This document shows positions 8,497 through 25,397 of a DNA stretch of 33,115 nt, piece after piece. The notes under the pieces were generated by a model. That model was not told where the DNA came from, made no database searches, and saw nothing but the letters and a program-made list of their open reading frames with translations. How positions within the stretch are numbered: the stretch's first letter is position 1; every line of letters starts with the position of its first letter. The translations under genes and the position numbers were made by a program. Source of the stretch: Escherichia coli (GTDB lineage Bacteria > Pseudomonadota > Gammaproteobacteria > Enterobacterales > Enterobacteriaceae); the NCBI RefSeq assembly GCF_003334385.1, contig NZ_QOWN01000049.1; one strand, written 5' to 3'.

Positions 8497-9077
8497 TGAA
8501 CCATCTCATGATTGACACCGAAACACTGGGTAACGGACCGGACGCAGCCATATTCGCGATTGGGGCGGTGTTTTTCGACCCGTTCACCGGAAAGCTGGGC
8601 AAGCAGTTTGAGAAATTCATCGACCCGGTGGATTCAGAACGCAACGGCGGAACCGTCAATGCAGCCACCGCTGTATGGTGGGCCGGACAATCCGTGGAGG
8701 CCAGATCCTGCCTGCGCAACGCAGATGGAACAGAGCTGGCAGCAGTGACCGAATTTCTGGCGTTCATTTCACGCAATATGCATGACGAAAGCCCGGGCAA
8801 TTCACTGAACATATGGTGTAAGGGCGCATCCTTCGATTTCCCGATCCTGAAATCCGCCATAACACGCACAGCCGGAGAAAAAAGCATCCCCTGGTGCTAC
8901 TGGAACGAGCGCTGTATGCGCCCGCTTATCGCCATGGCTGAATCAACTGGATGGAAAATGCCAGGCAGATCAGGAAAAGAGGCCATTGCTCACACCGCGC
9001 TGGGCGACGCCATTTACCAGGCAAAGGTCGTGTCAGAAATCTGGCAGCGCTTCACAACACCATTCCTGAACATATGA
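8496..9077 (+). CDS. DEDDh-type 3'-5' exonuclease (DnaQ-like fold)
   Basis: Motifs MIDTETLG (Exo I), internal acidic residues and HTALGDA (Exo III with His) in a 193-aa protein; coupled to the upstream gene. Confidence 0.8.
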   Translation: MNHLMIDTETLGNGPDAAIFAIGAVFFDPFTGKLGKQFEKFIDPVDSERNGGTVNAATAVWWAGQSVEARSCLRNADGTELAAVTEFLAFISRNMHDESPGNSLNIWCKGASFDFPILKSAITRTAGEKSIPWCYWNERCMRPLIAMAESTGWKMPGRSGKEAIAHTALGDAIYQAKVVSEIWQRFTTPFLNI

Positions 9078-9086
9078 GGTGAAGCC

Positions 9087-9314
9087 ATGGTCGCCATCCT
9101 GAATGTGTGTTGCTGCCCCCCCCTGAACGTGGAAAGAAAAGCCCGCGCATCGCTGCGTTTATTCCGCGACGGCGTGCGGAATTTTTCACGCATAAAACCC
9201 CACGACTACCTGGTAATAAGAATCGGTTTCCGCTGGCGATTACTGAGCAAAAACAACGGGGCGTCATGGGATTTATTAACGCACGAAACCTATAACAAAG
9301 AGGCCGCGTTATGA
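9087..9314 (+). CDS. Hypothetical protein (75 aa, Cys-rich N-terminus)
   Basis: ATG 9087 after gaggtga; stop overlaps the dam start (ATGA), consistent with coupling; no domain recognised. Confidence 0.4.
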   Translation: MVAILNVCCCPPLNVERKARASLRLFRDGVRNFSRIKPHDYLVIRIGFRWRLLSKNNGASWDLLTHETYNKEAAL

Positions 9315-10291
9315 GCAAAGAACTGTTATCCGGTACGCCACTGAAATGGGTGGGCGGAAAAAGCCGCATCATGAACACACTGAAGGCGCACCTGCCAGAA
9401 GCCGACTGTCTGGTTGAGCCGTTCGTGGGCGGCGCATCGGTATTCATGAACACCAGTTACAAGCGTTACATCCTGGGTGATTCCAATGGTGCGCTGATTA
9501 ATTTCTACCGGCAAGCTAGGGACAACACCGACAGCCTGATCGACGAGGCGAAAACCCTGTTCCTGAACCACAACAACAGGGGTGACTATCTCATCATTCG
9601 CGAAACCTTTAACGCAGAGAATCATGCCTTCCTGAACAGCAGAACGGGAATAAGCGACCGCCGTGAACTGCGACTGGCCGCCATGTTTTTGTACCTGAAC
9701 CGACACAGCTTTAACGGTTTGTTCCGCGTGAACGGAAAAGGCGATTTTAACGTGCCTTTCGGCTGCTACCGCAAGCCCTACTTCCCTGAGCGTGAAATCC
9801 GCGCATTTGCAGACAAGGCAAACAGCACCCGAACGCTGCTTATCCACGCAGATTTTAAGGATACGCTGAACTCTGCCAGTCACCTGTTCGGCATGGGCAA
9901 CACGCTTTGCGTGTACTGCGATCCCCCTTACCTGCAATTCAGTGGCCGGGACAATTTTACCGCCTACGGAAAACCATTCGATGAAGACGAGCACGTTCGT
10001 CTGAGGGCAGCGCTTGACCGCCTTTCACAGGAAACGGGCGGCATGACCAGCATCACCATCTCCAATTCCGACACACCGGAAACCAGACGCATTTATCAGG
10101 GTTACCGGATGAACACCATCCTGGCACCACGAAGCGTTGGCGCAAGAACCCGGGAATCAGCACCGGAGGTTATCGCCACCCTGAGACAGTGCGACGCCTG
10201 CGGTCGCCATGGCGGTGGCTACTGCCCGGACTGCGGACCTGTAACGGAAGATGCAACTTACAGCGCGATGTTAATCACCGCCAGTACGTAA
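9311..10291 (+). CDS. dam: DNA adenine (N6) methyltransferase, Dam family, with C-terminal Cys4 extension
   Basis: N-terminal PLKWVGGK, FVGGASVF and catalytic DPPY motif typical of Dam-family MTases; C-terminal CDACGRHGGGYCPDCGP is zinc-ribbon-like. Confidence 0.88.
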   Translation: MSKELLSGTPLKWVGGKSRIMNTLKAHLPEADCLVEPFVGGASVFMNTSYKRYILGDSNGALINFYRQARDNTDSLIDEAKTLFLNHNNRGDYLIIRETFNAENHAFLNSRTGISDRRELRLAAMFLYLNRHSFNGLFRVNGKGDFNVPFGCYRKPYFPEREIRAFADKANSTRTLLIHADFKDTLNSASHLFGMGNTLCVYCDPPYLQFSGRDNFTAYGKPFDEDEHVRLRAALDRLSQETGGMTSITISNSDTPETRRIYQGYRMNTILAPRSVGARTRESAPEVIATLRQCDACGRHGGGYCPDCGPVTEDATYSAMLITAST

Positions 10292-10325
10292 ACAACCAGT
10301 AAATCAGTAACACCGGAGTCAGGAA

Positions 10326-10562
10326 ATGAATAGCGAAAACAACAAAGAGCTTTTGCGGGAATTGCGTCTCATCGCCCGTGCACACGAGGAAGCAGCAAAA
10401 GTTATCGCTGCTGCTGGAAGACCAGAGCTCGTTATCGCTTCAGCAATCTCACTGAGGATCACCATGGAAGCAATCCGGGTGATTCAGGATCAGGAAAGTG
10501 AAATCGCCACCCTTAAAAAGCAGCTCAACGAGAAATCTGCCGGGCAAAGGAGTCAGCAATGA
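10326..10562 (+). CDS. Hypothetical protein (78 aa)
   Basis: ATG 10326 with ggag RBS; coupled to the next ORF (ATGA). Confidence 0.55.
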   Translation: MNSENNKELLRELRLIARAHEEAAKVIAAAGRPELVIASAISLRITMEAIRVIQDQESEIATLKKQLNEKSAGQRSQQ

Positions 10563-10777
10563 TCCAGGAATCAACCGTTATCCGGTTCACAGCCAACGGC
10601 CGTCAGTACGAGGTAGACGAAGCCCTGATTGATTACAGCATGACCCGCCAGAGCTCACGCTTTCAGGACATGTACCACATCCGGCTAATCAACGGTTCGT
10701 CTTTCAACGCCACAAACGTGGAAGAAGTACGCGTGCTGACAGCAACACGCAACACGGGAGGTAAAGCATGGCAGTGA
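10559..10777 (+). CDS. Hypothetical protein (72 aa)
   Basis: ATGA overlap with the upstream gene; overlaps the downstream start. Confidence 0.55.
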   Translation: MIQESTVIRFTANGRQYEVDEALIDYSMTRQSSRFQDMYHIRLINGSSFNATNVEEVRVLTATRNTGGKAWQ

Positions 10778-11118
10778 TTTATATCGCCGGCCCCATGACC
10801 GGATACGAAGACTGCAATAGAACGGCGTTTTGCCTGGAGGATCTGAAGCTTCGGTGCGCCGGAAACATCGTTCTTAATCCTGCCGTACTGCCTGACGGAT
10901 TAAGCCAGCAGCAGTACATGAGTATTTGTATTCCGATGCTCATGTGTGCCGATGCCATTTACTTACTGGATGGATGGGAAGAATCCGCTGGCGCACGGGC
11001 TGAGTACGCAATGGCGCTCAAACTGAACATGCCAGTGTCATTCCCGGAAAACCGGGCAGCCGTCGAAACCGTCGCGCAGCTGCTTCACAAATCAAAAGCC
11101 ACACAGGCGACTGAGTAA
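10768..11118 (+). CDS. DUF4406-like protein (nucleoside 2-deoxyribosyltransferase-like fold)
   Basis: N-terminal MAVIYIAGPMTG motif typical of DUF4406 phage proteins as recalled; gggagg RBS. Confidence 0.6.
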   Translation: MAVIYIAGPMTGYEDCNRTAFCLEDLKLRCAGNIVLNPAVLPDGLSQQQYMSICIPMLMCADAIYLLDGWEESAGARAEYAMALKLNMPVSFPENRAAVETVAQLLHKSKATQATE

Positions 11119-11616
11119 CCGACCGGAGATCGAAACATGATTGCGCGAAGAGCTGCCAACCGCCTCACAGGCTTTATTCCAGGCAAGGTTGATCATGCAC
11201 TCCATCACGGCGCTGTCACTTTCCTCAACAAAGGAGAGGCGCGCAATCATGCATTCTGGGGTGAGCACGTGGCGCTGGCTAATCAGTCTTTGATAGCTAA
11301 GCGCCTGCCATTCAGCCTTTTCAGCTCTGATAGAAAGAGAGGCAGCCATGACCTGCCACACCAGAAAGAGCACCACACTGGCGAAAACAAACGTTGCGCT
11401 GTCGCAAAAAATGAATGCGGCAACAATCGCAAGGAAAGCGCTAATCCTCAGAACCAAGGAAGCGCGACGGTGGAGAAGGCTTGTCATGTGTTCAAGCCAG
11501 TAGCTGTACCACAGGTCAAAAAGAATTTCGTAATCAGAAGGGAGCTTATCACTCATCAGAAACACCCCGCGTATGCAGACAATCACCAGTTGCCAGGTGA
11601 TATTAATTCGCAACAT
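11092..11616 (-). CDS. Hypothetical membrane protein (2-3 predicted TM helices), antisense to early operon
   Basis: Hydrophobic stretches ITWQLVIVCIRGVFL, LVLRISAFLAIVAAFIFC and FVFASVVLFLVWQVMAA followed by a ~70-aa soluble tail; convergent with and overlapping the 3' end of the DUF4406 gene; start uncertain (ATG 11616 or 11556; track starts at GTG 11739). Confidence 0.45.
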   Translation of the reverse strand: MLRINITWQLVIVCIRGVFLMSDKLPSDYEILFDLWYSYWLEHMTSLLHRRASLVLRISAFLAIVAAFIFCDSATFVFASVVLFLVWQVMAASLSIRAEKAEWQALSYQRLISQRHVLTPECMIARLSFVEESDSAVMECMINLAWNKACEAVGSSSRNHVSISGRLLSRLCGF

Positions 11617-11939
11617 TCTAACCACATCAGCACGCAACACAAAAACCGCTTGCCAGCGCTCGTCGTGTCGGGTTACATTTCCGCTGCACCTCATAAAACG
11701 GGTGCCGGGATTTCCACCCCGCTGACAAACGAAGCGCACAGCCGCGCCAGCGGTTTTTTTGTGCGTACTGTATCGCCACGTCTTTTTCGCGTCAGAATTA
11801 TGGCGGGGCGTACAGGGCCGACTTCGGTCGGGCCGGTTTCTTCGTTTGCCGGTTGTGGAAACCCTGTACGTCTCGCCACCCTGAGTTTTCCACCTCTGGT
11901 TGGTGAGTTTTCAAAATTCACAAACGAAGAGGCCACACC

Positions 11940-12161
11940 ATGGCAAACCGCAAGCAACAGCGCGCCCGCGCTGAGCGTCTTCACATCCGCAGCGAAATCA
12001 ACCGCAGACTTTTCCGCGCAACACGCGTCGCGCAAATCATGCATATCAACATGCTGCATGAGCGCACGCACGCACTATCAAACCGTTACTGCGCTGCCGT
12101 CTTCAGCTATCTGGCCGAAGACCTGGCAGAACTGCAAAGCCTCATCAACCAGCACCGATAA
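11940..12161 (+). CDS. Hypothetical small basic protein (73 aa)
   Basis: ATG 11940 with gaagagg RBS; arginine-rich; no domain recognised. Confidence 0.4.
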   Translation: MANRKQQRARAERLHIRSEINRRLFRATRVAQIMHINMLHERTHALSNRYCAAVFSYLAEDLAELQSLINQHR

Positions 12162-12229
12162 ACCACATCCGGAAGCTATCCCACACCTGCACGCGGGAGG
12201 CTTCCGCACATCTGTTACCGGAGGTTCTC

Positions 12230-12646
12230 ATGAAGAGCGTTAAGGGACTTTCAGATATTCAGGACTTCTTTAACTGGATGTGGGCGGTGGATCCCCTGCT
12301 GGCTTCCCGCCTGAACAACTGGCACGACTACTACCGCCGCGCCTGTAAACAGGCCGCCCGCAGCATCACCACATACGGGGATTTCTCCTTCACCGTTGAC
12401 GGTCGTTACCGCGTGGACGTGAAAGGTGACGGTGATGGCTTTGGTTTATTTCACATCAACGGCACCGACAGTACCGCCATCAGCTGGTCATCGTCAGAGA
12501 TGGCACTGGTTCTGGAAATGACAACCCACAGCGTGGCCGTGAAAGGCATATACACCGCAGAAGACTTTATCGGTGAATACCAGCGCCTTCTCGTGCTGTA
12601 CCGCGCGGCGTTTCAGGAGGTCACTGGCGGGGAGTACGACGCATGA
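12230..12646 (+). CDS. Hypothetical protein (138 aa) preceding replication gene A
   Basis: ATG 12230 with ggagg RBS; stop overlaps the A start (ATGA). Confidence 0.6.
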   Translation: MKSVKGLSDIQDFFNWMWAVDPLLASRLNNWHDYYRRACKQAARSITTYGDFSFTVDGRYRVDVKGDGDGFGLFHINGTDSTAISWSSSEMALVLEMTTHSVAVKGIYTAEDFIGEYQRLLVLYRAAFQEVTGGEYDA

Positions 12647-15156
12647 GTGACCGCAATGCACAGCTGGCGTACCCGTGGAACGCACCGCTACCGGTTATCG
12701 ATCCTGAAACGTTCGGCAGAGCACAACCAACCGCATTACGCCAGGCCATTCAGAGCTACATCAACGAGGACATTCGCATTGATGCCAGACTGGATGAAGA
12801 AACCGTCTCCTTCCTGACAAACACAGACGAAGGCAAGCGAATTAATTCGCATCTTCACCACGACGAAGAGCGTCGGGTCAGACTGGAAAAACTGGCGAAG
12901 CACAAACGCGAGAATCCGCCCACGGTGGTATCGGAAGCCATGGCAGAACTTCGCGCCCTGCCCTCGTTTCTTGCCAGTCCGCTCATCCGGGACCTGGCTC
13001 GCCTGAGCCGCAAACAGGAGAGCGCACGCCGGGAAGGGCTTAAGAATAACAGCGCATATGCGGCGGATAACTTCGTTCGTCATGGGCTGCGTGCCCGCCT
13101 GAAACGTATCGCCCGTGTGAATGAACGCTTTGCCACCCCGGCCTTTAAGGCCACCGCCGCCCGCGAACGGCTGGATGAACTGCTTATACTGCCGCAGCTG
13201 AGCCGTGACGAAATCCAGCACCTTGCCACCCTGACCGCCACCGCGTTTTCCGCCGCACTGGAGCGCGCATGTGATGAGATCATCGAAAAGACCGGCAGGG
13301 GTGACGATGACCTGTTCACCTGGTTACTGACCTACCAGTCACTGGCACACATGGCGTTAAAACTGGGTATCACGCCACCCTGCTGGCCGTCGCTGGAAAT
13401 CAGGCCAGACCGCCGCACCGCCCCCAACCCGGAACGGGTGCCGGGTGCGGTCATGCGCCTTTCCTGTGCGACATGGTGGAACAGTCAGTTAAGACACCTC
13501 CGGGACATCTGGCGTGAAGAGCTGTTACGCGCCGCAGGTCTGGTGTCACGTAAGACATCGGTATATATCAGCCATGAAGCGTTACTGGACTGGCGCGAAA
13601 AACGCCAGCGCACCCGCGATTTTCTGAAGGCCTGGGACATCGAGAACGAAGAGGGAGAACGGTTCAGCCTTGAGGATATCTACTGGGCAGGTCTCTCTAA
13701 TCCGCGTAACCGCCGTAACGAGATGATGACCTGCGCCCGGGGAATGGAGCAGGTCGCCGAAGCACGCGGCGACGTGGCGTTTTTCGTCACCGTCACAGCC
13801 CCTTCCCGTTTTCACAGCGTGAACGATGACGGCAGTCTGAACCCGAAATACTGCGGGGCAACGGTACGCGATGCCAGTGATTATCTGGTTTACCGCTTTT
13901 TCGCCGCCGTCCGCAGGGCCATCGACAAGGCCGGGCTGGGCTGGTACGGCGTGCGCACAGTGGAGCCCCACCACGACGGTACACCGCACTGGCACATGCT
14001 GGTATTCACCAGCCAGGAAAACGAAGCCCGTATCACTGAAATCATGCGCAACGCCGCCATCAGGGAGGACCGCGCAGAGCTGGGTGATGATATCTCCCCG
14101 CGTTTTAAATGCGAAAAAATCGACCCGGCAAAAGGCACACCGACAAGCTATATCGCGACCTATATCGGTAAGAACCTGGACGCCAGCGCCTTCATGGGAA
14201 ATGACCCGAAAACCGGCAAACCTTACATCGATAAGGAATCAGGCAAAACCATGGCCGAAACCGTGGAGAACGCCATCGGCTGGGCAGGCCTTCACCGCAT
14301 CCACCAGTTCCAGTTCTTCGGTATCCCGCCCCGCCAGGTATGGCGCGAACTCCGCCGCCTTGCCGGGCAGATGGCCCGTAACCCGACTGCCCCACAGCGT
14401 CTGGACCATGACGACATTGACGCCATACTGGCCGCCGCCGACGTGGGATGTTTTGCCACCTATATCACCCGCCAGGGTGGTGTGCTCATTCCCCGCAACA
14501 CGTACCTGGTCCGCACCGCATACGAAACTGCCGAAGAGGCCAACGACTACGGCGAATTCCCGCAACGCATTTACGGCGTCCGCGCCCCGTTACTCGGGGA
14601 GCGCTACACCATATGCACCCACCCGGACACCTGGAAACTGGTCAGACGTAAGCCGGAAAACGAAGACCGCACGGACGAGGGTTTTGACGTTGAGTGCGGC
14701 TTTGCCGCACCTTGGACTCGTGGCAATAACTGTCCCCATGATGAAAAAACAGACACCGGAGAGGGTAAAACCCCACCACCGGAAACCAGGAAAGAACAAA
14801 AACTGGTCGTCCCGGGAGGTGATTTGGGTGAGTGGTTAAGGTCACTGACCCCCACAGAGCGAAAACAACTCACCAGGCAGCTGAAAGATGCGCCATCTGA
14901 CACAAAAACCGTGAAAACCGGCGGCCCCACCACGCCCGATGACGTCATACATGTGCGTACAGCATTGCCGCTGACTGACGTCACCACCACCGTAATCAAG
15001 TCGGCACTGAGCGCGACGGGCGAGGAGCTACACAGTGGCGCAGCACTTTCCGTACACAGAGGTGCACGCGTTCGCCTGCCTGACGGGCGGATTGTGCACT
15101 GGGATGAGAAATCACGAAGCCTGGTGGCAGCAGATCAACCGGAGGTGAACCCATGA
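12643..15156 (+). CDS. A: Rolling-circle replication initiation endonuclease, P2 gpA family
   Basis: 837 aa with HUH motif (TPHWHMLVF) and paired active-site tyrosines (YIATYIGK) characteristic of P2 A / phiX174 gpA-type nickases. Confidence 0.9.
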   Translation: MSDRNAQLAYPWNAPLPVIDPETFGRAQPTALRQAIQSYINEDIRIDARLDEETVSFLTNTDEGKRINSHLHHDEERRVRLEKLAKHKRENPPTVVSEAMAELRALPSFLASPLIRDLARLSRKQESARREGLKNNSAYAADNFVRHGLRARLKRIARVNERFATPAFKATAARERLDELLILPQLSRDEIQHLATLTATAFSAALERACDEIIEKTGRGDDDLFTWLLTYQSLAHMALKLGITPPCWPSLEIRPDRRTAPNPERVPGAVMRLSCATWWNSQLRHLRDIWREELLRAAGLVSRKTSVYISHEALLDWREKRQRTRDFLKAWDIENEEGERFSLEDIYWAGLSNPRNRRNEMMTCARGMEQVAEARGDVAFFVTVTAPSRFHSVNDDGSLNPKYCGATVRDASDYLVYRFFAAVRRAIDKAGLGWYGVRTVEPHHDGTPHWHMLVFTSQENEARITEIMRNAAIREDRAELGDDISPRFKCEKIDPAKGTPTSYIATYIGKNLDASAFMGNDPKTGKPYIDKESGKTMAETVENAIGWAGLHRIHQFQFFGIPPRQVWRELRRLAGQMARNPTAPQRLDHDDIDAILAAADVGCFATYITRQGGVLIPRNTYLVRTAYETAEEANDYGEFPQRIYGVRAPLLGERYTICTHPDTWKLVRRKPENEDRTDEGFDVECGFAAPWTRGNNCPHDEKTDTGEGKTPPPETRKEQKLVVPGGDLGEWLRSLTPTERKQLTRQLKDAPSDTKTVKTGGPTTPDDVIHVRTALPLTDVTTTVIKSALSATGEELHSGAALSVHRGARVRLPDGRIVHWDEKSRSLVAADQPEVNP

Positions 15157-15557
15157 CACGATTCCATTGTGTACTCCAGCGCCATGATTTCAGCGCCATC
15201 ATGAGTGGACGCATTCCCGCACTGACGCTGAGCGGCGTCAGTGTTCGACCACAGCCAGGCGACGAACTGGAGATCACGATCGCAAACCCCGATCGCAGCA
15301 CAGATACCGTCATGACCGACATCCTGACTGCAAGAATCAACACCGACAGAAGCGCATTCATCGTTGCCGTGCGCCCTCGTCGCGCCATATCAGAGCCTGA
15401 ACCACTGACTCCCGTAGGAAAAATCATGCAGGCATACCACGAAAAACAGACCAGAAAACTCAACGAAGAACTGGCAAGAACGCTGGCCGTCGTTAACCGA
15501 AAAGCGGCAATTGTCCGCTATGTGCATTCGGCCGCCAGCAGGCAATCACGCAGGTAA
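15153..15557 (+). CDS. Hypothetical protein (134 aa), coupled to A
   Basis: ATGA overlap with the A stop; no domain recognised. Confidence 0.6.
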   Translation: MTRFHCVLQRHDFSAIMSGRIPALTLSGVSVRPQPGDELEITIANPDRSTDTVMTDILTARINTDRSAFIVAVRPRRAISEPEPLTPVGKIMQAYHEKQTRKLNEELARTLAVVNRKAAIVRYVHSAASRQSRR

Positions 15558-15605: not shown

Positions 15606-15776
15606 ATGAACGACATCAGGAGGATCAGCGACAAAGAGCTTACGAAAATGATTGAGTCGGCGCAGCAGCTGCTTTCACGACGAAATCCGGTTGTGGAAGA
15701 AACATGGTGGGAAAATTTACTGACAGCACTGACCGAACTCCGCGAACGCCGGAACAACGAAGGAGCCGCCAAATGA
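15606..15776 (+). CDS. Hypothetical small protein (56 aa)
   Basis: ATG 15606 (MNDIRRIS...) with aaggag RBS 7 nt upstream; the track ORF starts at 15567; stop overlaps the next start. Confidence 0.5.
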   Translation: MNDIRRISDKELTKMIESAQQLLSRRNPVVEETWWENLLTALTELRERRNNEGAAK

Positions 15777-16111
15777 AGACACCCAGAATGACCGGAAAGG
15801 TAATCATTTTACGCTACCTGGAAACGCACGCACGCTTCAGCGCACCAGAGCTGGTTGAAAAACTGGGCGTGAAAAGGACCATCATTAATCAGGCCGCCGG
15901 AAAGATGGTACGCGAAGGGCTGCTGGTTGTGGACGGGTACACGGACAAGATAACGCATTACCGGAAGCCAACGGAAAAGGAACGACTGGAGCTGGCGCAA
16001 CGGGCAGAATGGCAACAAGAGCCGTCCGTAATTGAAGCCTGCAAGCGCAGCGAAATCATGAAGAGAATTCTGTTTATCTACGGCGCTGGCGAAGAGCTGC
16101 CAGTCATCTAA
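15773..16111 (+). CDS. Winged-helix DNA-binding protein (MarR/PadR-like), hypothetical
   Basis: ATG 15773 with aggag RBS; segment FSAPELVEKLGVKRTIINQAAGKMVREGLLVV has a wHTH pattern. Confidence 0.5.
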   Translation: MKTPRMTGKVIILRYLETHARFSAPELVEKLGVKRTIINQAAGKMVREGLLVVDGYTDKITHYRKPTEKERLELAQRAEWQQEPSVIEACKRSEIMKRILFIYGAGEELPVI

Positions 16112-16143: not shown

Positions 16144-16461
16144 ATGCCAACACAGGTTGCAACAGAGGGACGACTGGCAGCAGACCCGAACACAAGGAGA
16201 ACAACCAAAGGAACCAACGTCACAACGGCACAACTGGCGGTATCACTACCCTGCCATGGCGCAGAACAGCCAACCACAATGTGGCTTTACCTTATTTCAT
16301 TCGGGAAGCAGCACGAAGAACTGGCAAAACACAGAAAAGGCGATCTGATTCTGGTGCACGGAAACTTGCAGGTAAACAGGTATCAGGACAAGTACGGGCA
16401 ACAGAAAGAGAGCTGGCAGTTGCTGGCGCAAAGCATTATCAGCTCAAGAACCGGGCGATGA
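16144..16461 (+). CDS. SSB-like OB-fold protein (105 aa, lacks C-terminal acidic tail)
   Basis: Aligns in pattern to the N-terminal OB fold of bacterial SSB (G-L..DP..R....G..V....LAVS...W....FGK..E.....KG....V.G.L....Y.D..GQ); gggaga RBS; followed by an intrinsic terminator. Confidence 0.6.
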   Translation: MPTQVATEGRLAADPNTRRTTKGTNVTTAQLAVSLPCHGAEQPTTMWLYLISFGKQHEELAKHRKGDLILVHGNLQVNRYQDKYGQQKESWQLLAQSIISSRTGR

Positions 16462-17601: not shown

Positions 17602-18645
17602 TCAGCTGGCGCCATCCTGAAGCAGCGAATAGGGATTAAAGCGCATCACTTCAACCCCAAGCCATTCATTGACATGCTTCATCGCTTCCATGACCGGTTG
17701 CAACTCGTTGATGAAAAATACCCTCGCCGCCTTCTCAACGTCACCGAACGCCGCGTTCCCGTCAGGCATTGCCCCCATCAGCTGAGGCGGTACACGGTGA
17801 GCCGCAAGGATATCGTCGCGGGCACTCCCCTTGATGTTAAGGAATTCGTCCTTCGCGGTGATTTGCTGGAACGGCAGTATTTGCACACCATCCTTGCCGC
17901 CACCTGGCGCGTGCAGAAGGATATTGCGGAACGCCCCCTTGCCACGGGATTCCGTGAGTGTTTTCTTGATGGCTTCCACGCTTTCAGCGTTTGCCTGGGC
18001 GGCACCAACATAGACAATGCACCCGGCATGTGAACCGTTGTCATAGTAGAGCTTGCGGAACGTATCCGCTGAGTTCGACAGACTCACCGACAGCAACCCA
18101 CCGATATACTCCGGCATCCCGTAGATTTCCTGGTTGATATCGGGGTTCAGAACGTGGCACACAGCCCCCTTACGGAAAGCAAATTCAGAACCATCATCAT
18201 TGAGGTACCAGTACGTATCGAGATCACTGCCCCGCCGCGTGTATTTCGCCAGCGCAGGACGAAGCGCAATGGGTTCACCGAACTTGTTGCGGCGGACTTC
18301 AAGATAGGCATTACCGAACACGAACCAGTCCAGCGCAAACGCGGAAAACGCCTGGCGGGACAGTAGCGGATGAGGAACAAAGCAGCCGTTCAGGGCATTA
18401 CGCTTAAAATACAGGGCCGACTGGTGCCATGATGCACAACGCGAGGCGCGAGCAATGGCATTCCAGTCCATGGGGGTGTCATAGTAGCGGCCATTATCGG
18501 CGCACGACATGTTATCAAGCAGATCAAGACGGCTTGCTTCATAAGGACCGTCAAACGTGAAAGCACTGAGTGACGGCGCTGATTTCAGTGCATCAGCCAG
18601 TGAGCCCGTGCCGCGCTTTCCGGTGTATTTTTTACGTTTACTCAT
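17602..18645 (-). CDS. Q: Portal protein, P2 gpQ family
   Basis: 347 aa, size and position matching P2 Q; immediately followed on the same strand by the large terminase. Confidence 0.88.
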   Translation of the reverse strand: MSKRKKYTGKRGTGSLADALKSAPSLSAFTFDGPYEASRLDLLDNMSCADNGRYYDTPMDWNAIARASRCASWHQSALYFKRNALNGCFVPHPLLSRQAFSAFALDWFVFGNAYLEVRRNKFGEPIALRPALAKYTRRGSDLDTYWYLNDDGSEFAFRKGAVCHVLNPDINQEIYGMPEYIGGLLSVSLSNSADTFRKLYYDNGSHAGCIVYVGAAQANAESVEAIKKTLTESRGKGAFRNILLHAPGGGKDGVQILPFQQITAKDEFLNIKGSARDDILAAHRVPPQLMGAMPDGNAAFGDVEKAARVFFINELQPVMEAMKHVNEWLGVEVMRFNPYSLLQDGAS

Positions 18646-18650
18646 TGTGT

Positions 18651-20384
18651 TCAGAACTCCATTGCAAAGCCACGATTATCCTCACGCTCTGCGCCGATTG
18701 GCTCATTGATAACAGCAAGCATGGTTGCCCAGGCGAGATCACCATGACTGACACCGCGTGAGCGGTCAGTGTCATAGGTGATATAGCCGCCGGGCGTCTG
18801 TATTTTTCGCACCGATGCAAAGGCCTGTACCAGGTCGCGCTCGCTGCGGTCATACTCCCAGCGTCCGGCACGGACCACCTGAAGCATCTTCATGACCAGC
18901 GCCCGCTTTGAAGCGATATTAAAGTTATACGGAACAGCCAGGGGGAAGAATTTTTTCACTATCTGATAAACCCCTTCCCCGTTCCCGCCGGTGACATCAA
19001 TCCCGATATGCTTCACATTGTATTTTTGGGTGTACTCCTCAATCAGGGCGGCCTGCTGTTCAAACTCCATGCCCTGAACCCTGACGGTTTCCACCGTACG
19101 AAAACGCCCACCGGCAACAAGGGGTGGCACGCACACCGACAGCGCCCCGCAGTCCCCCTTCCCGCTGCTGCCGTTGGCGTCATACCCGAGCCAGACTTCC
19201 CTCACCCCCATAGGGCGGACAGCAAAAGGCTTCCAGTCCGGCCATTCGTCATAGCCATCAACACCGCACCCGACGAGCGTATTCAGACTGAAGGCTGCCT
19301 CACCATCACGGACAAATTCGCACATGTACAGATTGCGAAATTCACTTTCTGTATTTTCGCCGCGAATATCATCAATACTGGTGAACTGCCATCCGTTAGC
19401 GACAGCATCCTCAATGGTGACAATCTGCCGCCACGTTTTGTCGGGAAAGAGCACGCCCCTCTTCAGGTGAGCATGTGAAACATCAAACTCACTGCGTTTT
19501 GAGCGTGGCTGTTCGCTGTTCCAGCGGTCCCCCGTCCAGAACTGATACGCCTCATGCATTTCCCCCGACGGCGTCGAGAAGTAAGTGCGCGTAAGCCCTT
19601 CCAGGGTCGCCATTGCCCCGGCAACCTTCCTGAGGTTCACAAAGTTACTGACCCAGAAAAATTCGTCGAATTTAAGATGACCGGTATAGGACTGCGCGGT
19701 GGCAGCTGACGTACCGAGGAAGTGCAGCTCCGCGCCGTTGGACAGCACGATCTTGTCGCCCCCTTTCAGCTCAACATCCACTTCCAGCGCCGCCTGCTGA
19801 ATAAAATGCTTGAACTGATACGCCTGACGACGGGAGGCGGACAAAAATATCTGGTTGCGCTGATACCCGGCGGAGACGTCATCACGCAGTGCATCAAGGA
19901 GCGCCTCGCGCGCAAAATACCAGGTCGCACCAATCTGACGCGACTTCAGGATCATACGGTTGCGGTGGTGACGGTTTTCGTACCATTCACGTTGATGCCA
20001 CGCCAGCGTCGGGAGGATTTTTTCACGAAGCGCGACAATCTGTTCTTCGGTGAAGTGATTTTTCAGTCTGCGTTTACGGGGCTTTTTACCGGAAACGGCC
20101 TGTTCTCCCTGACCGTCATTCAGTTTTTTCAGCTGGCGCGTGAGAAGGTCAATTTCCTTAAAATCGCTGCCGCTTTTCTCTGTTTTTGTGGTGAGCTGGA
20201 TCAGGCGCGCATCAATGGACTGGGTGACCCGCTGGATCGGAGGTGTGGCATCCCACTCATCGCGTTTTTTCCATGAGTAAATCGTGTTCTGGCTGATCCC
20301 CATCAGTTGCGAGATTTCCGCAGGTGTGTACCCTTGCCAGTAAAGTTGTCTTGCCCTTATGCGGACAAATGCATCCTGAATCAT
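18651..20384 (-). CDS. P: Terminase large (ATPase) subunit, P2 gpP family
   Basis: N-terminal HTH-like segment (YTPAEISQLMGISQNTIYSWKKRDEWD) and size matching P2 P; ATG 20384 has an aggggg RBS; the in-frame ATG at 20429 (592 aa) is the alternative. Confidence 0.88.
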   Translation of the reverse strand: MIQDAFVRIRARQLYWQGYTPAEISQLMGISQNTIYSWKKRDEWDATPPIQRVTQSIDARLIQLTTKTEKSGSDFKEIDLLTRQLKKLNDGQGEQAVSGKKPRKRRLKNHFTEEQIVALREKILPTLAWHQREWYENRHHRNRMILKSRQIGATWYFAREALLDALRDDVSAGYQRNQIFLSASRRQAYQFKHFIQQAALEVDVELKGGDKIVLSNGAELHFLGTSAATAQSYTGHLKFDEFFWVSNFVNLRKVAGAMATLEGLTRTYFSTPSGEMHEAYQFWTGDRWNSEQPRSKRSEFDVSHAHLKRGVLFPDKTWRQIVTIEDAVANGWQFTSIDDIRGENTESEFRNLYMCEFVRDGEAAFSLNTLVGCGVDGYDEWPDWKPFAVRPMGVREVWLGYDANGSSGKGDCGALSVCVPPLVAGGRFRTVETVRVQGMEFEQQAALIEEYTQKYNVKHIGIDVTGGNGEGVYQIVKKFFPLAVPYNFNIASKRALVMKMLQVVRAGRWEYDRSERDLVQAFASVRKIQTPGGYITYDTDRSRGVSHGDLAWATMLAVINEPIGAEREDNRGFAMEF

Positions 20385-20451
20385 TGACGCCCCCTTGCTG
20401 TTTGATCTCAAGAGTAAACGCCCGCGCATTCATCCAGGTATCCGGTGCCAT

Positions 20452-23950: not shown

Positions 23951-24150
23951 TGAAGGTAACCGCGCATGACGGCGACACCGTTGACTTACTCTGCCAGCGT
24001 CATTACGGCATGACAAAGGGCGTGACAGAGCGCGTTCTGGCTGCCAATCCGGGGCTGAGTAACACGGTATTCCTCACTGCCGGGCAGGAAGTTGAATTAC
24101 CGGAAATCACACAGGAAAAACAGCGCGAAACCGTTCAGTTGTGGGATTGA
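23950..24150 (+). CDS. X: Tail protein X (LysM-like), P2 gpX family
   Basis: 66 aa (MKVTAHDGDTVDLLCQRHYG...) at the gpX position between L and the holin. Confidence 0.78.
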   Translation: MKVTAHDGDTVDLLCQRHYGMTKGVTERVLAANPGLSNTVFLTAGQEVELPEITQEKQRETVQLWD

Positions 24151-24152
24151 TT

Positions 24153-24443
24153 ATGTTTCAGAGAATTTACGACCACATTACGTTTTTCACATCCGTCATG
24201 GTCACCGGTATAGGGGTTATGACGCTGAGCGAGAAGATGGCGCTGGCAGGACTGATTCTGGGGGCGCTTTCACTGCTGCGCGGATGGATGCACAGAACAC
24301 GTATGGAGCAGGCACAGGAGCGGCGCAATGAGCTTATTGCACGCATTGCCGACCAGATGCAGCACCGACCACTAAAAGGCAGCGAGAAGCGCGCTCTGGA
24401 AGCCCTGAATGCAGACGGGGAATCACATGCCAGGACAGATTAA
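24153..24443 (+). CDS. Y: Holin (two predicted TM helices)
   Basis: 96 aa with hydrophobic segments ITFFTSVMVTGIGVMTL and MALAGLILGALSLL and a charged C-terminus; immediately upstream of the endolysin. Confidence 0.65.
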   Translation: MFQRIYDHITFFTSVMVTGIGVMTLSEKMALAGLILGALSLLRGWMHRTRMEQAQERRNELIARIADQMQHRPLKGSEKRALEALNADGESHARTD

Positions 24444-24966
24444 ACGCTATGCCGTTGCCGCCATCGTGGCGCTGGGTTTTTCGCTGGCCCCCGGGGAGCT
24501 GAGAACCTCACAGGAGGCACAGGAAAAAATTGCCACCTGGGAAGAGTGTCGGGCATTCCCGTACAGGGATATCGCTGGCGTGAAAACAGTGGGTTGTGGC
24601 TCAACGGGAAACGTCCCCGACCGCCACCATACCAAACAGGAAGTTGCCGGTCGATGGGTGAACGATTTACGACGGGCGGAGAACTGCATCAATCAGAATT
24701 TCAATGGCCGCGACATGCCACAGCGCCACTTTGAGGCAATGACGGATGCTGCCTTTAATCTGGGGTGCAAAGGCCTGATGTGGTTTAAGGGGCGTGACGG
24801 GAGGATGCACAGAACAACCATCTGGAAGTTCGCTCAGGGAAAGAACTGGAGCGCAATGTGCGGCAGGCTGACGGATTTTGTGAACAGCGGCGGACGCTAT
24901 TCACAGGGGCTGTTTAACCGGCGCAATGACTTCAGGAACTGGTGTATGAACGGAGTGAAGCAATGA
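24409..24966 (+). CDS. K: SAR endolysin (GH24 T4-type lysozyme domain with N-terminal signal-anchor-release segment)
   Basis: N-terminal weakly hydrophobic YAVAAIVALGFSLA followed by a catalytic E-x8-D-x5-T pattern (EECRAFPYRDIAGVKT); the alternative start ATG 24427 has the better RBS. Confidence 0.82.
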   Translation: MQTGNHMPGQIKRYAVAAIVALGFSLAPGELRTSQEAQEKIATWEECRAFPYRDIAGVKTVGCGSTGNVPDRHHTKQEVAGRWVNDLRRAENCINQNFNGRDMPQRHFEAMTDAAFNLGCKGLMWFKGRDGRMHRTTIWKFAQGKNWSAMCGRLTDFVNSGGRYSQGLFNRRNDFRNWCMNGVKQ

Positions 24967-25397
24967 AAACACCTGCCGTGTTGCTCTGGTTTCTTGCCAC
25001 CCTGTTGCTTTGTGGCCTGACAGGCTGGGAAGCATACCGCAAAGGGAAGGAAAGTCTCGGACGGGAACAGATGATGGACATCATAGAGGACAACCGCGCC
25101 GCCATGCAGGAAGTTCGCCATGCATACACAGACTTTTCCAGGGTGATAAACGTGATCCGCATTCTGGACCAGCAACGGATCACAGAAGGAGAGCAACGAC
25201 GTGAAGAAATGCAAAAAGCCGTGCAGGGCGACACGTGTGCCAGCGCTTATCCTCCCGCTGCTGTTACTGAGCGGTTGCAGCAACACGCCGCACACGTTGA
25301 AAACCAGACTCGTTTACGAGCCGGTGCCGACAGTTCTGACAAGGCAGACCCCGGTTCCGGCACTGGAAATACCCGTGACATGGTACAGGGTGACTGA
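24963..25397 (+). CDS. i-spanin (Rz/LysB-like inner-membrane spanin)
   Basis: N-terminal TM (AVLLWFLATLLLCGL) then charged coiled-coil-like region; ATGA overlap with the endolysin stop; embedded o-spanin ORF in another frame. Confidence 0.7.
   Translation: MKTPAVLLWFLATLLLCGLTGWEAYRKGKESLGREQMMDIIEDNRAAMQEVRHAYTDFSRVINVIRILDQQRITEGEQRREEMQKAVQGDTCASAYPPAAVTERLQQHAAHVENQTRLRAGADSSDKADPGSGTGNTRDMVQGD

Follow-up and report, generated by a model that had tools for sequence, protein, structure and literature searches.

The early region of a P2-like prophage (apl/cII/A type) of Escherichia coli, inserted beside the host genes dmsABC, carries a small membrane-protein gene on the strand opposite to that of the lytic genes around it. 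The window, i.e., the whole stretch of DNA that was analysed, comprises 33,115 nucleotides (nt) of contig NZ_QOWN01000049.1 (assembly GCF_003334385.1), and coordinates refer to it unless another locus is named. An earlier note on this stretch had described a minus-strand gene at 11092-11760 and had guessed at a function in superinfection exclusion, abortive infection, or lysogenic conversion. According to comparative sequence analysis and structure prediction, the gene product is best described as a solitary form, new and carried by phages, of the known SLATT effector fold; the gene is placed antisense with unusual constancy, varies in the manner of a cassette, and probably belongs to the exchangeable accessory genes, with a protective role for the lysogen.

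That a minus-strand gene exists here is borne out by its match to phrog_6315 and by its substitution pattern, yet it is shorter than proposed. A longer minus-strand open reading frame (ORF) at 11092..11739 comprises 215 amino acids (aa) with a GTG start; the match to phrog_6315 (E 1e-64) covers residues 67-215 of it, the homologues in the family alignment all begin at a Met equivalent to the ATG of a 154-aa form, and the Prokaryotic Genome Annotation Pipeline (PGAP) annotates this 154-aa form in the 98%-identical E. coli S19-651 (L001). The gene is therefore placed at 11092-11556, whereas the remainder (11557-11760) is noncoding and consists of the 5' leader of the gene, two back-to-back promoter-like sites, and a plus-strand isrK-like small RNA (sRNA). 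The gene and the signals at its ends are as follows:

11092-11556 (stop codon included), minus strand: gene of a SLATT-like protein with two transmembrane (TM) segments, 154 aa, ATG start (ORF, PHROG, substitution rates, PGAP, family alignment)
11563..11568, minus strand: Shine-Dalgarno-like GGGGTG, 6 nt ahead of the ATG, read from the sequence
11097..11112, minus strand: weak terminator-like hairpin with a T-rich tail over the stop codon (consensus scan; doubtful)

Clearer ribosome-binding sites (GGAG/GAGG) are found at the same distance in the homologues.

Whether the minus strand or the plus strand is the coding one can be judged from the ratio of nonsynonymous to synonymous substitution rates (dN/dS), calculated according to Nei-Gojobori against four alleles that are about 80% identical in DNA. 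This ratio amounts to 0.19-0.20 in the minus frame of the 154-aa gene, whereas it reaches 1.18-1.26 in the frame of a 368-aa plus-strand ORF (11137-12243); the other four frames range from 0.4 to 2.0 and contain several stop codons each. The 154-aa gene is under purifying selection, and the test of synonymous constraint that the earlier note had named as a possible refutation found the minus frame constrained and the plus frame not, a result in favour of the minus strand. The alternative, namely that the locus holds no minus-strand gene but the shadow of the 368-aa ORF or noncoding sequence, could draw on the matches of this ORF to PHROG 'transcriptional regulator' families (E 1e-16) and on the annotations of Fels-2 and of the Yersinia phage vB_YenM_42.18, which assign the homologous stretch to a gene on the strand of the early operon. 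The PHROG matches, however, are confined to residues 162-287 of the ORF, i.e., to nt 11620-11997, which correspond to the conserved isrK/C4 region, its promoter, and the start of the derepression gene and lie outside the span of the minus-strand gene. Furthermore, minus-strand homologues (150-161 aa) still keep length, topology, and motifs at identities down to 24%. With these findings, the absence of a gene is effectively refuted.

Two observations on existing annotations belong here. A 62-aa minus-strand 'hypothetical protein' across the C4 RNA (11691-11879) is annotated by PGAP and in several phage records; this annotation and the PHROG matches of the 368-aa ORF look like protein calls laid over conserved RNA genes in phage records, and the PHROG 'transcriptional regulator' families concerned may be contaminated by such ORFs. 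In Fels-2, STM2733.1 (L002, 3390-3794) and in vB_YenM_42.18, gene 008 (L003, 3309-3974) are annotated on the early-operon strand exactly opposite the homologue; both are probably wrong-strand annotations, with homologues of 152 and 156 aa, respectively, beneath them. With such probable wrong-strand annotations in reference genomes, the family is largely invisible in phage protein sets.

Concerning the protein, hydropathy gives two adjacent hydrophobic segments (residues 32-51 and 54-76) with a 3-residue turn between them. Of the earlier description as a protein with two to three TM segments and a soluble C-terminal tail, two segments and the soluble C-terminal part are thus retained, whereas a third segment is unsupported. 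Charged residues flank the pair (Arg30/Arg31 before, Arg77/Lys80 after), and this pattern indicates that the SLATT-like protein would form an N-in/C-in hairpin in the inner membrane. An AlphaFold2 model built with the family alignment (predicted local distance difference test 89, predicted template-modelling score 0.80) consists of two long antiparallel helices (8-50 and 54-93) and short C-terminal helices (100-111, 119-133, and 143-151), which amounts to a cytoplasmic helix at the N terminus, two TM segments in a tight hairpin, and a small C-terminal domain made up of helices. It is the arrangement by which SLATT domains are recognised, a two-TM hairpin flanked by N- and C-terminal cytoplasmic helices within about 130-170 residues. 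Recognised SLATT/DUF4231 proteins are also the most similar ones among predicted structures: Foldseek against AFDB50 returned 66 hits at E <= 1e-3, of which the closest folds are annotated SLATT/DUF4231 proteins (template-modelling scores of 0.7-0.85 to annotated members). Searches of PDB structures were uninformative, and the viral structure library BFVD yielded only weak matches with low template-modelling scores, mostly to giant-virus proteins annotated as SLATT.

Profile searches lead to the same fold family, but at sub-threshold level. SLATT_4 is matched in five of ten family members (E 2e-4 to 0.1), the family consensus matches both SLATT_4 and SLATT_1, and the consensus and two members match weakly (E 1e-3 to 1e-4, range to 3e-2) the PADLOC '2TM Effector' models of the cyclic-oligonucleotide-based antiphage signalling systems (CBASS). 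All of these matches are far below threshold; they are recurrent and co-linear, which makes remote homology to SLATT plausible. The window protein itself matches no SLATT profile in NCBIfam (including NF033632 and NF033634) and nothing in PADLOC, and a weak match to DUF6239 (E 1.6e-3 to 4.5e-3) could not be interpreted. Given the likeness in predicted fold and the sub-threshold profiles, the protein is called SLATT-like on the grounds of predicted fold and architecture, short of formal SLATT membership by sequence. It does not qualify as a CBASS 2TM effector, for which a profile match and an adjacent CD-NTase are expected, as the matches are weak and no CD-NTase is present. The guess at exclusion or abortive infection thus receives some independent support from the SLATT-like fold, as 2TM effectors of this fold act in systems of the abortive-infection type, whereas the window protein has no above-threshold match among known defence and exclusion families. 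Conservation is concentrated outside the membrane, where all of the conserved residues are situated (F13, Y19, E22, R31, A81, Q84, Y88, L91, D114, S115, and A125), and the TM hairpin is variable and the least conserved part of the protein.

With 19 representatives at 50% identity in a set of 1.8 billion proteins, the family is small, and its antisense placement, noted before for this one locus, proved to be family-wide and not a local accident. A scan of IMG/VR with a 7-sequence family alignment as query yielded 34 loci, in which strands were scored by tblastn with marker genes; this replaced a scoring by ORFs, which was too noisy. The homologue is antisense to every early-operon marker (GpA, Dam, Exo, DUF4406, Derep, orf138, and GpB) in all 33 loci that bear such markers, and it is co-oriented with Int in 20 of 20. 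In Fels-2, the homologue lies between a fil-like gene and STM2733, antisense to the surrounding lytic genes; in vB_YenM_42.18 it precedes gpB, again antisense; and in P88-like prophages it is situated directly upstream of isrK-C4, likewise antisense. A lone antisense homologue is also found in an Erwinia P2-like prophage, in two Mu-like prophages, and in the early region of a Pseudomonas lambdoid prophage. Wherever the flanks are readable, the homologue is a single gene with no conserved neighbour. Phage P88 itself is devoid of it, and the slot used in the P88-like prophages is occupied there by an SPFH gene on the sense strand.

In one lambda-like phage, terminase and portal are separated by a small island that contains the homologue, and the homologue shares its strand with the terminase gene. 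Together with the small size and the two TM segments, reminiscent of class II holins, this location could be taken as a sign of a lytic-cycle membrane function, expressed after induction from a promoter other than the candidate one, either in lysis timing (holin- or antiholin-like) or in host takeover. Such a function is improbable for the window gene: it lies in the early region, head-on to early transcription and outside the lysis cassette, which is complete elsewhere (24141-25397); there is no match to a holin PHROG; and the closest folds are those of SLATT proteins, not of holins.

The same orientation bears on the possibility of an anti-defence decoy, which would co-assemble with host SLATT effectors (of CBASS, of defence-associated reverse transcriptases (DRT), or of TIR systems) or compete for their signal and block host suicide in this way. 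A decoy of this kind would account for a fold that resembles those effectors without a partner gene, for conserved residues that face the cytoplasm, the side on which binding of a ligand or partner would be expected, and for a TM hairpin, the would-be killing part, that is the least conserved. Counter-defence genes are normally early and sense, however, whereas all loci examined by markers have this gene opposite to the early operon, such that early transcription should oppose the expression of a decoy; with an equally small probability as the lytic function, it ranks among the improbable explanations.

Concerning variability, the gene is contained in an element the left edge of which lies within the neighbouring gene:

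11047..11623: exchangeable cassette of about 0.58 kb, comprising the -10 element, the leader, and the gene together with that 3' part of the DUF4406 gene which it overlaps
10768-11118, plus strand: DUF4406 (nucleoside 2-deoxyribosyltransferase-like) gene, which closes the upstream early block

A related prophage (L033) exhibits 96.0% identity to the window over 7501-11046 and 97.6% over 11624-15200 and carries a homologue of only 38% protein identity between these flanks. In E. coli 2013C-3033 (L020), a 35%-identical homologue is situated between the window-equivalent positions 11089 and 11637. The gene hence interrupts a conserved gene order and varies between closely related phages (L033, L020, and P88 as compared with P88-like prophages), as is characteristic of a moron. 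By these comparisons, the element is exchanged as a unit between otherwise nearly identical prophages and would be a self-contained accessory-gene cassette. The allele of about 80% identity is itself a mosaic: codons 22-105 are near synonymous saturation (proportion of synonymous differences 0.66-0.82), whereas both ends are almost identical, and dN/dS is about 0.2 throughout, which argues for recombination and not for positive selection. Positive selection on the TM hairpin, considered as a separate possibility, is ruled out by the same value of about 0.2 there. Consistent antisense placement and cassette replacement in near-identical prophages point to a variable slot in P2-like phages, previously undescribed and distinct from the gpA-gpQ hotspot.

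As stated in the earlier note, the gene is convergent with the DUF4406 gene and overlaps its 3' end, the overlap being 27 nt. In the complete E. coli genomes, DUF4406 genes of this allele group adjoin a family member in every inspected locus, with the 27-nt overlap in most, and SLATT domains are typically coupled to nucleotide-processing Rossmann-like domains. Both facts would suit a two-gene system in which DUF4406 makes or destroys a nucleoside-derived signal that gates the SLATT-like protein, comparable to SLOG-SLATT or TIR-SLATT pairs. Yet the two genes are convergent and not co-transcribed, DUF4406 is absent beside the P88-like, Fels-2, Yersinia, Erwinia, Mu-like, Pseudomonas, and lambda-like homologues, and the co-occurrence in E. 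coli is explained by a single prophage lineage. A functional pair of this kind is highly improbable.

On its right side, the cassette ends just beyond the -10 element of a candidate promoter:

11615..11642, minus strand: candidate promoter of the gene, with -35-like TTGTGT (11642-11637), a 16-nt spacer, and -10 TAGAAT (11620-11615), predicted start at about 11608

The window has TAGAAT and the cassette with the 38-39%-identical homologue has TATAAT at the same position, and downstream of the -10 element the two cassettes are unrelated in sequence; P88, which does not possess the gene, exhibits no good -10 element at the equivalent position. We infer from this that the gene is transcribed from its own weak promoter at 11615..11642. 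The -35 element of the candidate promoter and that of the isrK promoter are situated back to back, 7 bp apart. On the plus strand, a consensus scan found no terminator between DUF4406 and the isrK terminator, so that early transcripts should cross the gene head-on.

To the right of the cassette follows a set of RNA genes and coding genes on the plus strand:

11650..11679, plus strand: sigma-70-like isrK promoter (TTGCCA, 18 nt, TACATT), the position of which fits the isrK 5' end at 11686
11686..11760, plus strand: isrK-like sRNA, equivalent to P4 seqA (Rfam RF01394, 64.1 bits, E 1e-11)
11740-11760, plus strand: intrinsic terminator of isrK (terminator scan)
11796..11883, plus strand: C4-type antisense RNA, equivalent to P4 CI RNA (Rfam RF01695, 82.1 bits, E 7e-15)
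11940..12161, plus strand: gene of a 73-aa 'derepression protein' (PF25738 Derepression, weak), the first coding gene of the isrK-C4 unit
12230-12646, plus strand: orf138, between the derepression gene and A
12643-15156, plus strand: replication gene A, the final gene of the rightward early operon

The loop of C4 (11839-11848) is exactly complementary to two sites, 11726-11734 within isrK and 11921-11930 immediately ahead of the derepression gene with its ATG start. This corresponds to the logic of seqA, CI RNA, and seqB in P4, which is shared with P1 and in which isrK is the equivalent of seqA (PMC3632133). The isrK RNA with its promoter and terminator, C4, and the derepression gene constitute a complete RNA immunity module of the P4/P1 type ahead of replication gene A, which suggests that A is controlled not only by the protein repressor but also at the RNA level, through termination or a block of translation. 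The module is common and is found in phage P88 and relatives at 84-87% identity. The T-tract at 11745-11770, which the earlier note had considered as a possible operon boundary, is actually the isrK terminator of this module, as identified by Rfam and the terminator scan. The isrK promoter starts a second unit that is co-oriented with the first, so the SLATT-like gene sits at the junction of the upstream early genes, which end with DUF4406, and the isrK-C4-derepression-A unit. The notion of a gene embedded in the early operon therefore holds for its antisense position relative to early genes, but the gene marks the junction with the isrK-promoter unit. In a second prophage of E. coli STEC2018-607 (L021, 3882-4932), two copies of the 73-aa derepression-type gene are annotated about 830 bp apart, as if the isrK-C4-derepression module had been duplicated in tandem on the downstream side of the SLATT-like gene.

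A control of the membrane gene by C4 or isrK was considered and rejected, as no exact target is present on the minus-strand mRNA and the family occurs without these RNAs. The loop target CAAACGAAG is found in exact form only in plus-strand isrK and in the derepression leader and is absent from the minus-strand mRNA, and neither isrK nor C4 was detected near the homologues in the Fels-2, Yersinia phage, Mu-like, and lambda-like contigs. These results also affect the idea of a toxin-like function in prophage maintenance or induction control, in which a membrane toxin would be kept in check by the RNA of the early operon, as an antisense transcript, or by the neighbouring isrK/C4 RNAs, with loss or deregulation of the prophage being penalised. 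The arrangement lends itself to such an idea, with a gene that is convergent to and overlaps the upstream gene and a promoter back to back with the immunity RNAs, and SLATT effectors are toxic when deregulated (DRT10 preprint). However, C4 has no target in the minus-strand mRNA, the homologues just mentioned are not accompanied by these RNAs, and the early operon is repressed in the lysogen, so early RNA could not serve as the antitoxin there. Such a function is very improbable.

The explanation favoured here, tentatively and with doubt slightly outweighing belief, is that the gene is a self-contained moron encoding a solitary SLATT-like effector of exclusion or abortive infection that the lysogen produces and that convergent early transcription shuts down. 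In the lysogen, the weak promoter of the gene, which adjoins the isrK/C4 immunity promoter back to back, would drive its transcription; since the immunity promoter is expected to be active in this state, the protein would be made while the early operon is repressed. Being a solitary effector of SLATT type, it would sense a cue of a superinfecting phage through its conserved cytoplasmic face; the cue would lead to oligomerisation, and the inner membrane would be permeabilised or depolarised, resulting in abortive infection or exclusion. Upon induction of the prophage itself, strong early transcription would traverse the gene head-on, ending only at the isrK terminator, and turn the gene off, such that the phage would spare its own lytic cycle. 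Interference between convergent promoters is well known for pR and pL of coliphage 186. Accessory loci of prophages that lie antisense are typically transcribed in lysogens, and this orientation is an accepted sign of such loci. TIR-SLATT pairs, which have been proposed to limit superinfection, occur in phages. Defence systems such as DRT10 require SLATT proteins as their membrane effectors, and pore formation is predicted for these proteins (DRT10 preprint).

Several points weigh against the self-contained exclusion effector. Characterised SLATT effectors need a partner that makes the activating signal, and none was found here: neither in the prophage nor in the inspected homologous loci is the gene adjoined by a SMODS/CD-NTase, SLOG, TIR, or reverse-transcriptase partner. 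The assignment to the fold is based on a comparison of predicted structures of a simple helical fold. Pfam yielded no match to SLATT_1 to SLATT_6 or DUF4231, and the profile scores of members and consensus, 12-21 bits for SLATT_4 (cut-off 55) and 13-16 bits for SLATT_1 (cut-off 41), stay far below the curated cut-offs. The candidate promoter is weak by consensus (three of six positions in the -35 element) and was missed by a stricter scan, and upstream of the homologues in other phages no shared convincing sigma-70 site was found. The 3' region folds no better than shuffled sequences (z = -1.1), and no significant terminator follows the gene. The alleles exhibit no sign of positive selection, their divergence being that of mosaic recombination under purifying selection. 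Finally, a literature search on the Fels-2 homologue (STM2734) found nothing. The text of the transcriptome study of BTP5, a P2-like phage, contains no mention of such a gene, and PADLOC detected no system component in the window prophage except an orphan methylase.

A wider proposal, rather unlikely in our estimation, extends the exclusion effector to phrog_6315 and its relatives as a whole. These would provide temperate phages widely with a system in which a single gene suffices for anti-phage defence or exclusion. Infection would be sensed directly through the conserved cytoplasmic face, without a partner that produces a second messenger or cDNA; specificity would be changed by the swapping of allelic cassettes at a fixed antisense slot of the early operon; and convergent early transcription would act as the off-switch that spares the lytic cycle of the phage itself. 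How SLATT proteins are activated is an acknowledged open question even where they are required (DRT10 preprint); if partner-free action holds true, a SLATT-like protein of 154 residues would be the simplest system for studying activation and pore formation.

Concerning the surroundings, the remaining landmarks of the prophage and its host junction are:

99-4036: host genes dmsC, dmsB, and dmsA
4127-4261, plus strand: sRNA STnc130 (Enterobacterial; 125 bits), between dmsA and the prophage integrase gene, i.e., at the prophage-host junction
4336-5343, minus strand: integrase
5398-5880, minus strand: repressor
17602-20429: portal and terminase
24141-25397: complete lysis cassette with holin, endolysin, and spanin

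A 2-kb stretch around the SLATT-like gene is 98.2% identical to E. coli S19-651; the gene itself is 98.5% identical there and 99.1% identical in E. coli NCTC9112. Among 5,426 complete E. coli genomes, no more than 25 cover at least 80% of the length of this 2-kb query, and 1,220 E. coli genomes match some portion of it. A comparison of S19-651 with the window reveals a fine-scale mosaic in the early region: the small early ORFs at 10326-10562 and 10559-10777 are missing in the otherwise 98%-identical S19-651 prophage, in which the methylase directly precedes DUF4406. Just ahead of the Dam methylase gene, a 75-aa ORF (9087-9314, plus strand) corresponds to a protein annotated by PGAP as 'ParE family toxin-like protein' in related prophages, and a gene for an antitoxin is not apparent next to it. 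In the known variable hotspot of P2 that separates A from the portal gene, the ORF 15704-16111 (plus strand) matches a PHROG 'Ren-like exclusion protein' (E 1e-28) and is followed by an ORF (16144-16461) resembling single-stranded-DNA-binding (SSB) proteins; PADLOC found no system there.

Among the known systems, the protein is most similar to SLATT proteins (SMODS- and SLOG-associating 2TM effectors, with SLATT_1 to SLATT_6 and DUF4231), such as the CBASS 2TM effectors, those of DRT10/UG17 and of some DRT3 loci, and the phage TIR-SLATT pairs. It shares with them its size (about 150-170 aa), the N-terminal helix, the two-TM hairpin, the cytoplasmic helices, the predicted fold, the weak co-linear profile matches, and the occurrence on mobile elements involved in phage conflicts. 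Despite this general similarity, there are clear differences: the window gene is solitary, reaches no profile at curated threshold, and is placed antisense within the lytic operons of temperate phages and not in a defence operon.

Exclusion and abortive-infection membrane proteins of phages and prophage morons include SieA and SieB of P22, Imm of T4, gp15 of HK97, and RexB of lambda, and among the lysogenic conversion genes of P2-type phages are old, tin, and fun of P2. Equally to such morons and exclusion proteins, the window gene encodes a small membrane protein of a temperate phage, may constitute its own transcription unit, runs against the lytic genes, and varies among similar phages, whereas its product exhibits no sequence or profile similarity to any of the proteins named (PHROG, PADLOC). 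In contrast to the described gpA-gpQ hotspot of P2, the window cassette is located upstream of A. The neighbouring module, finally, is a clear member of the P4/P1-type RNA immunity systems, with isrK and C4 above the Rfam thresholds and the complementary sites of C4 in place, whereas the membrane gene is not a known component of such modules and occurs without them in other phages.

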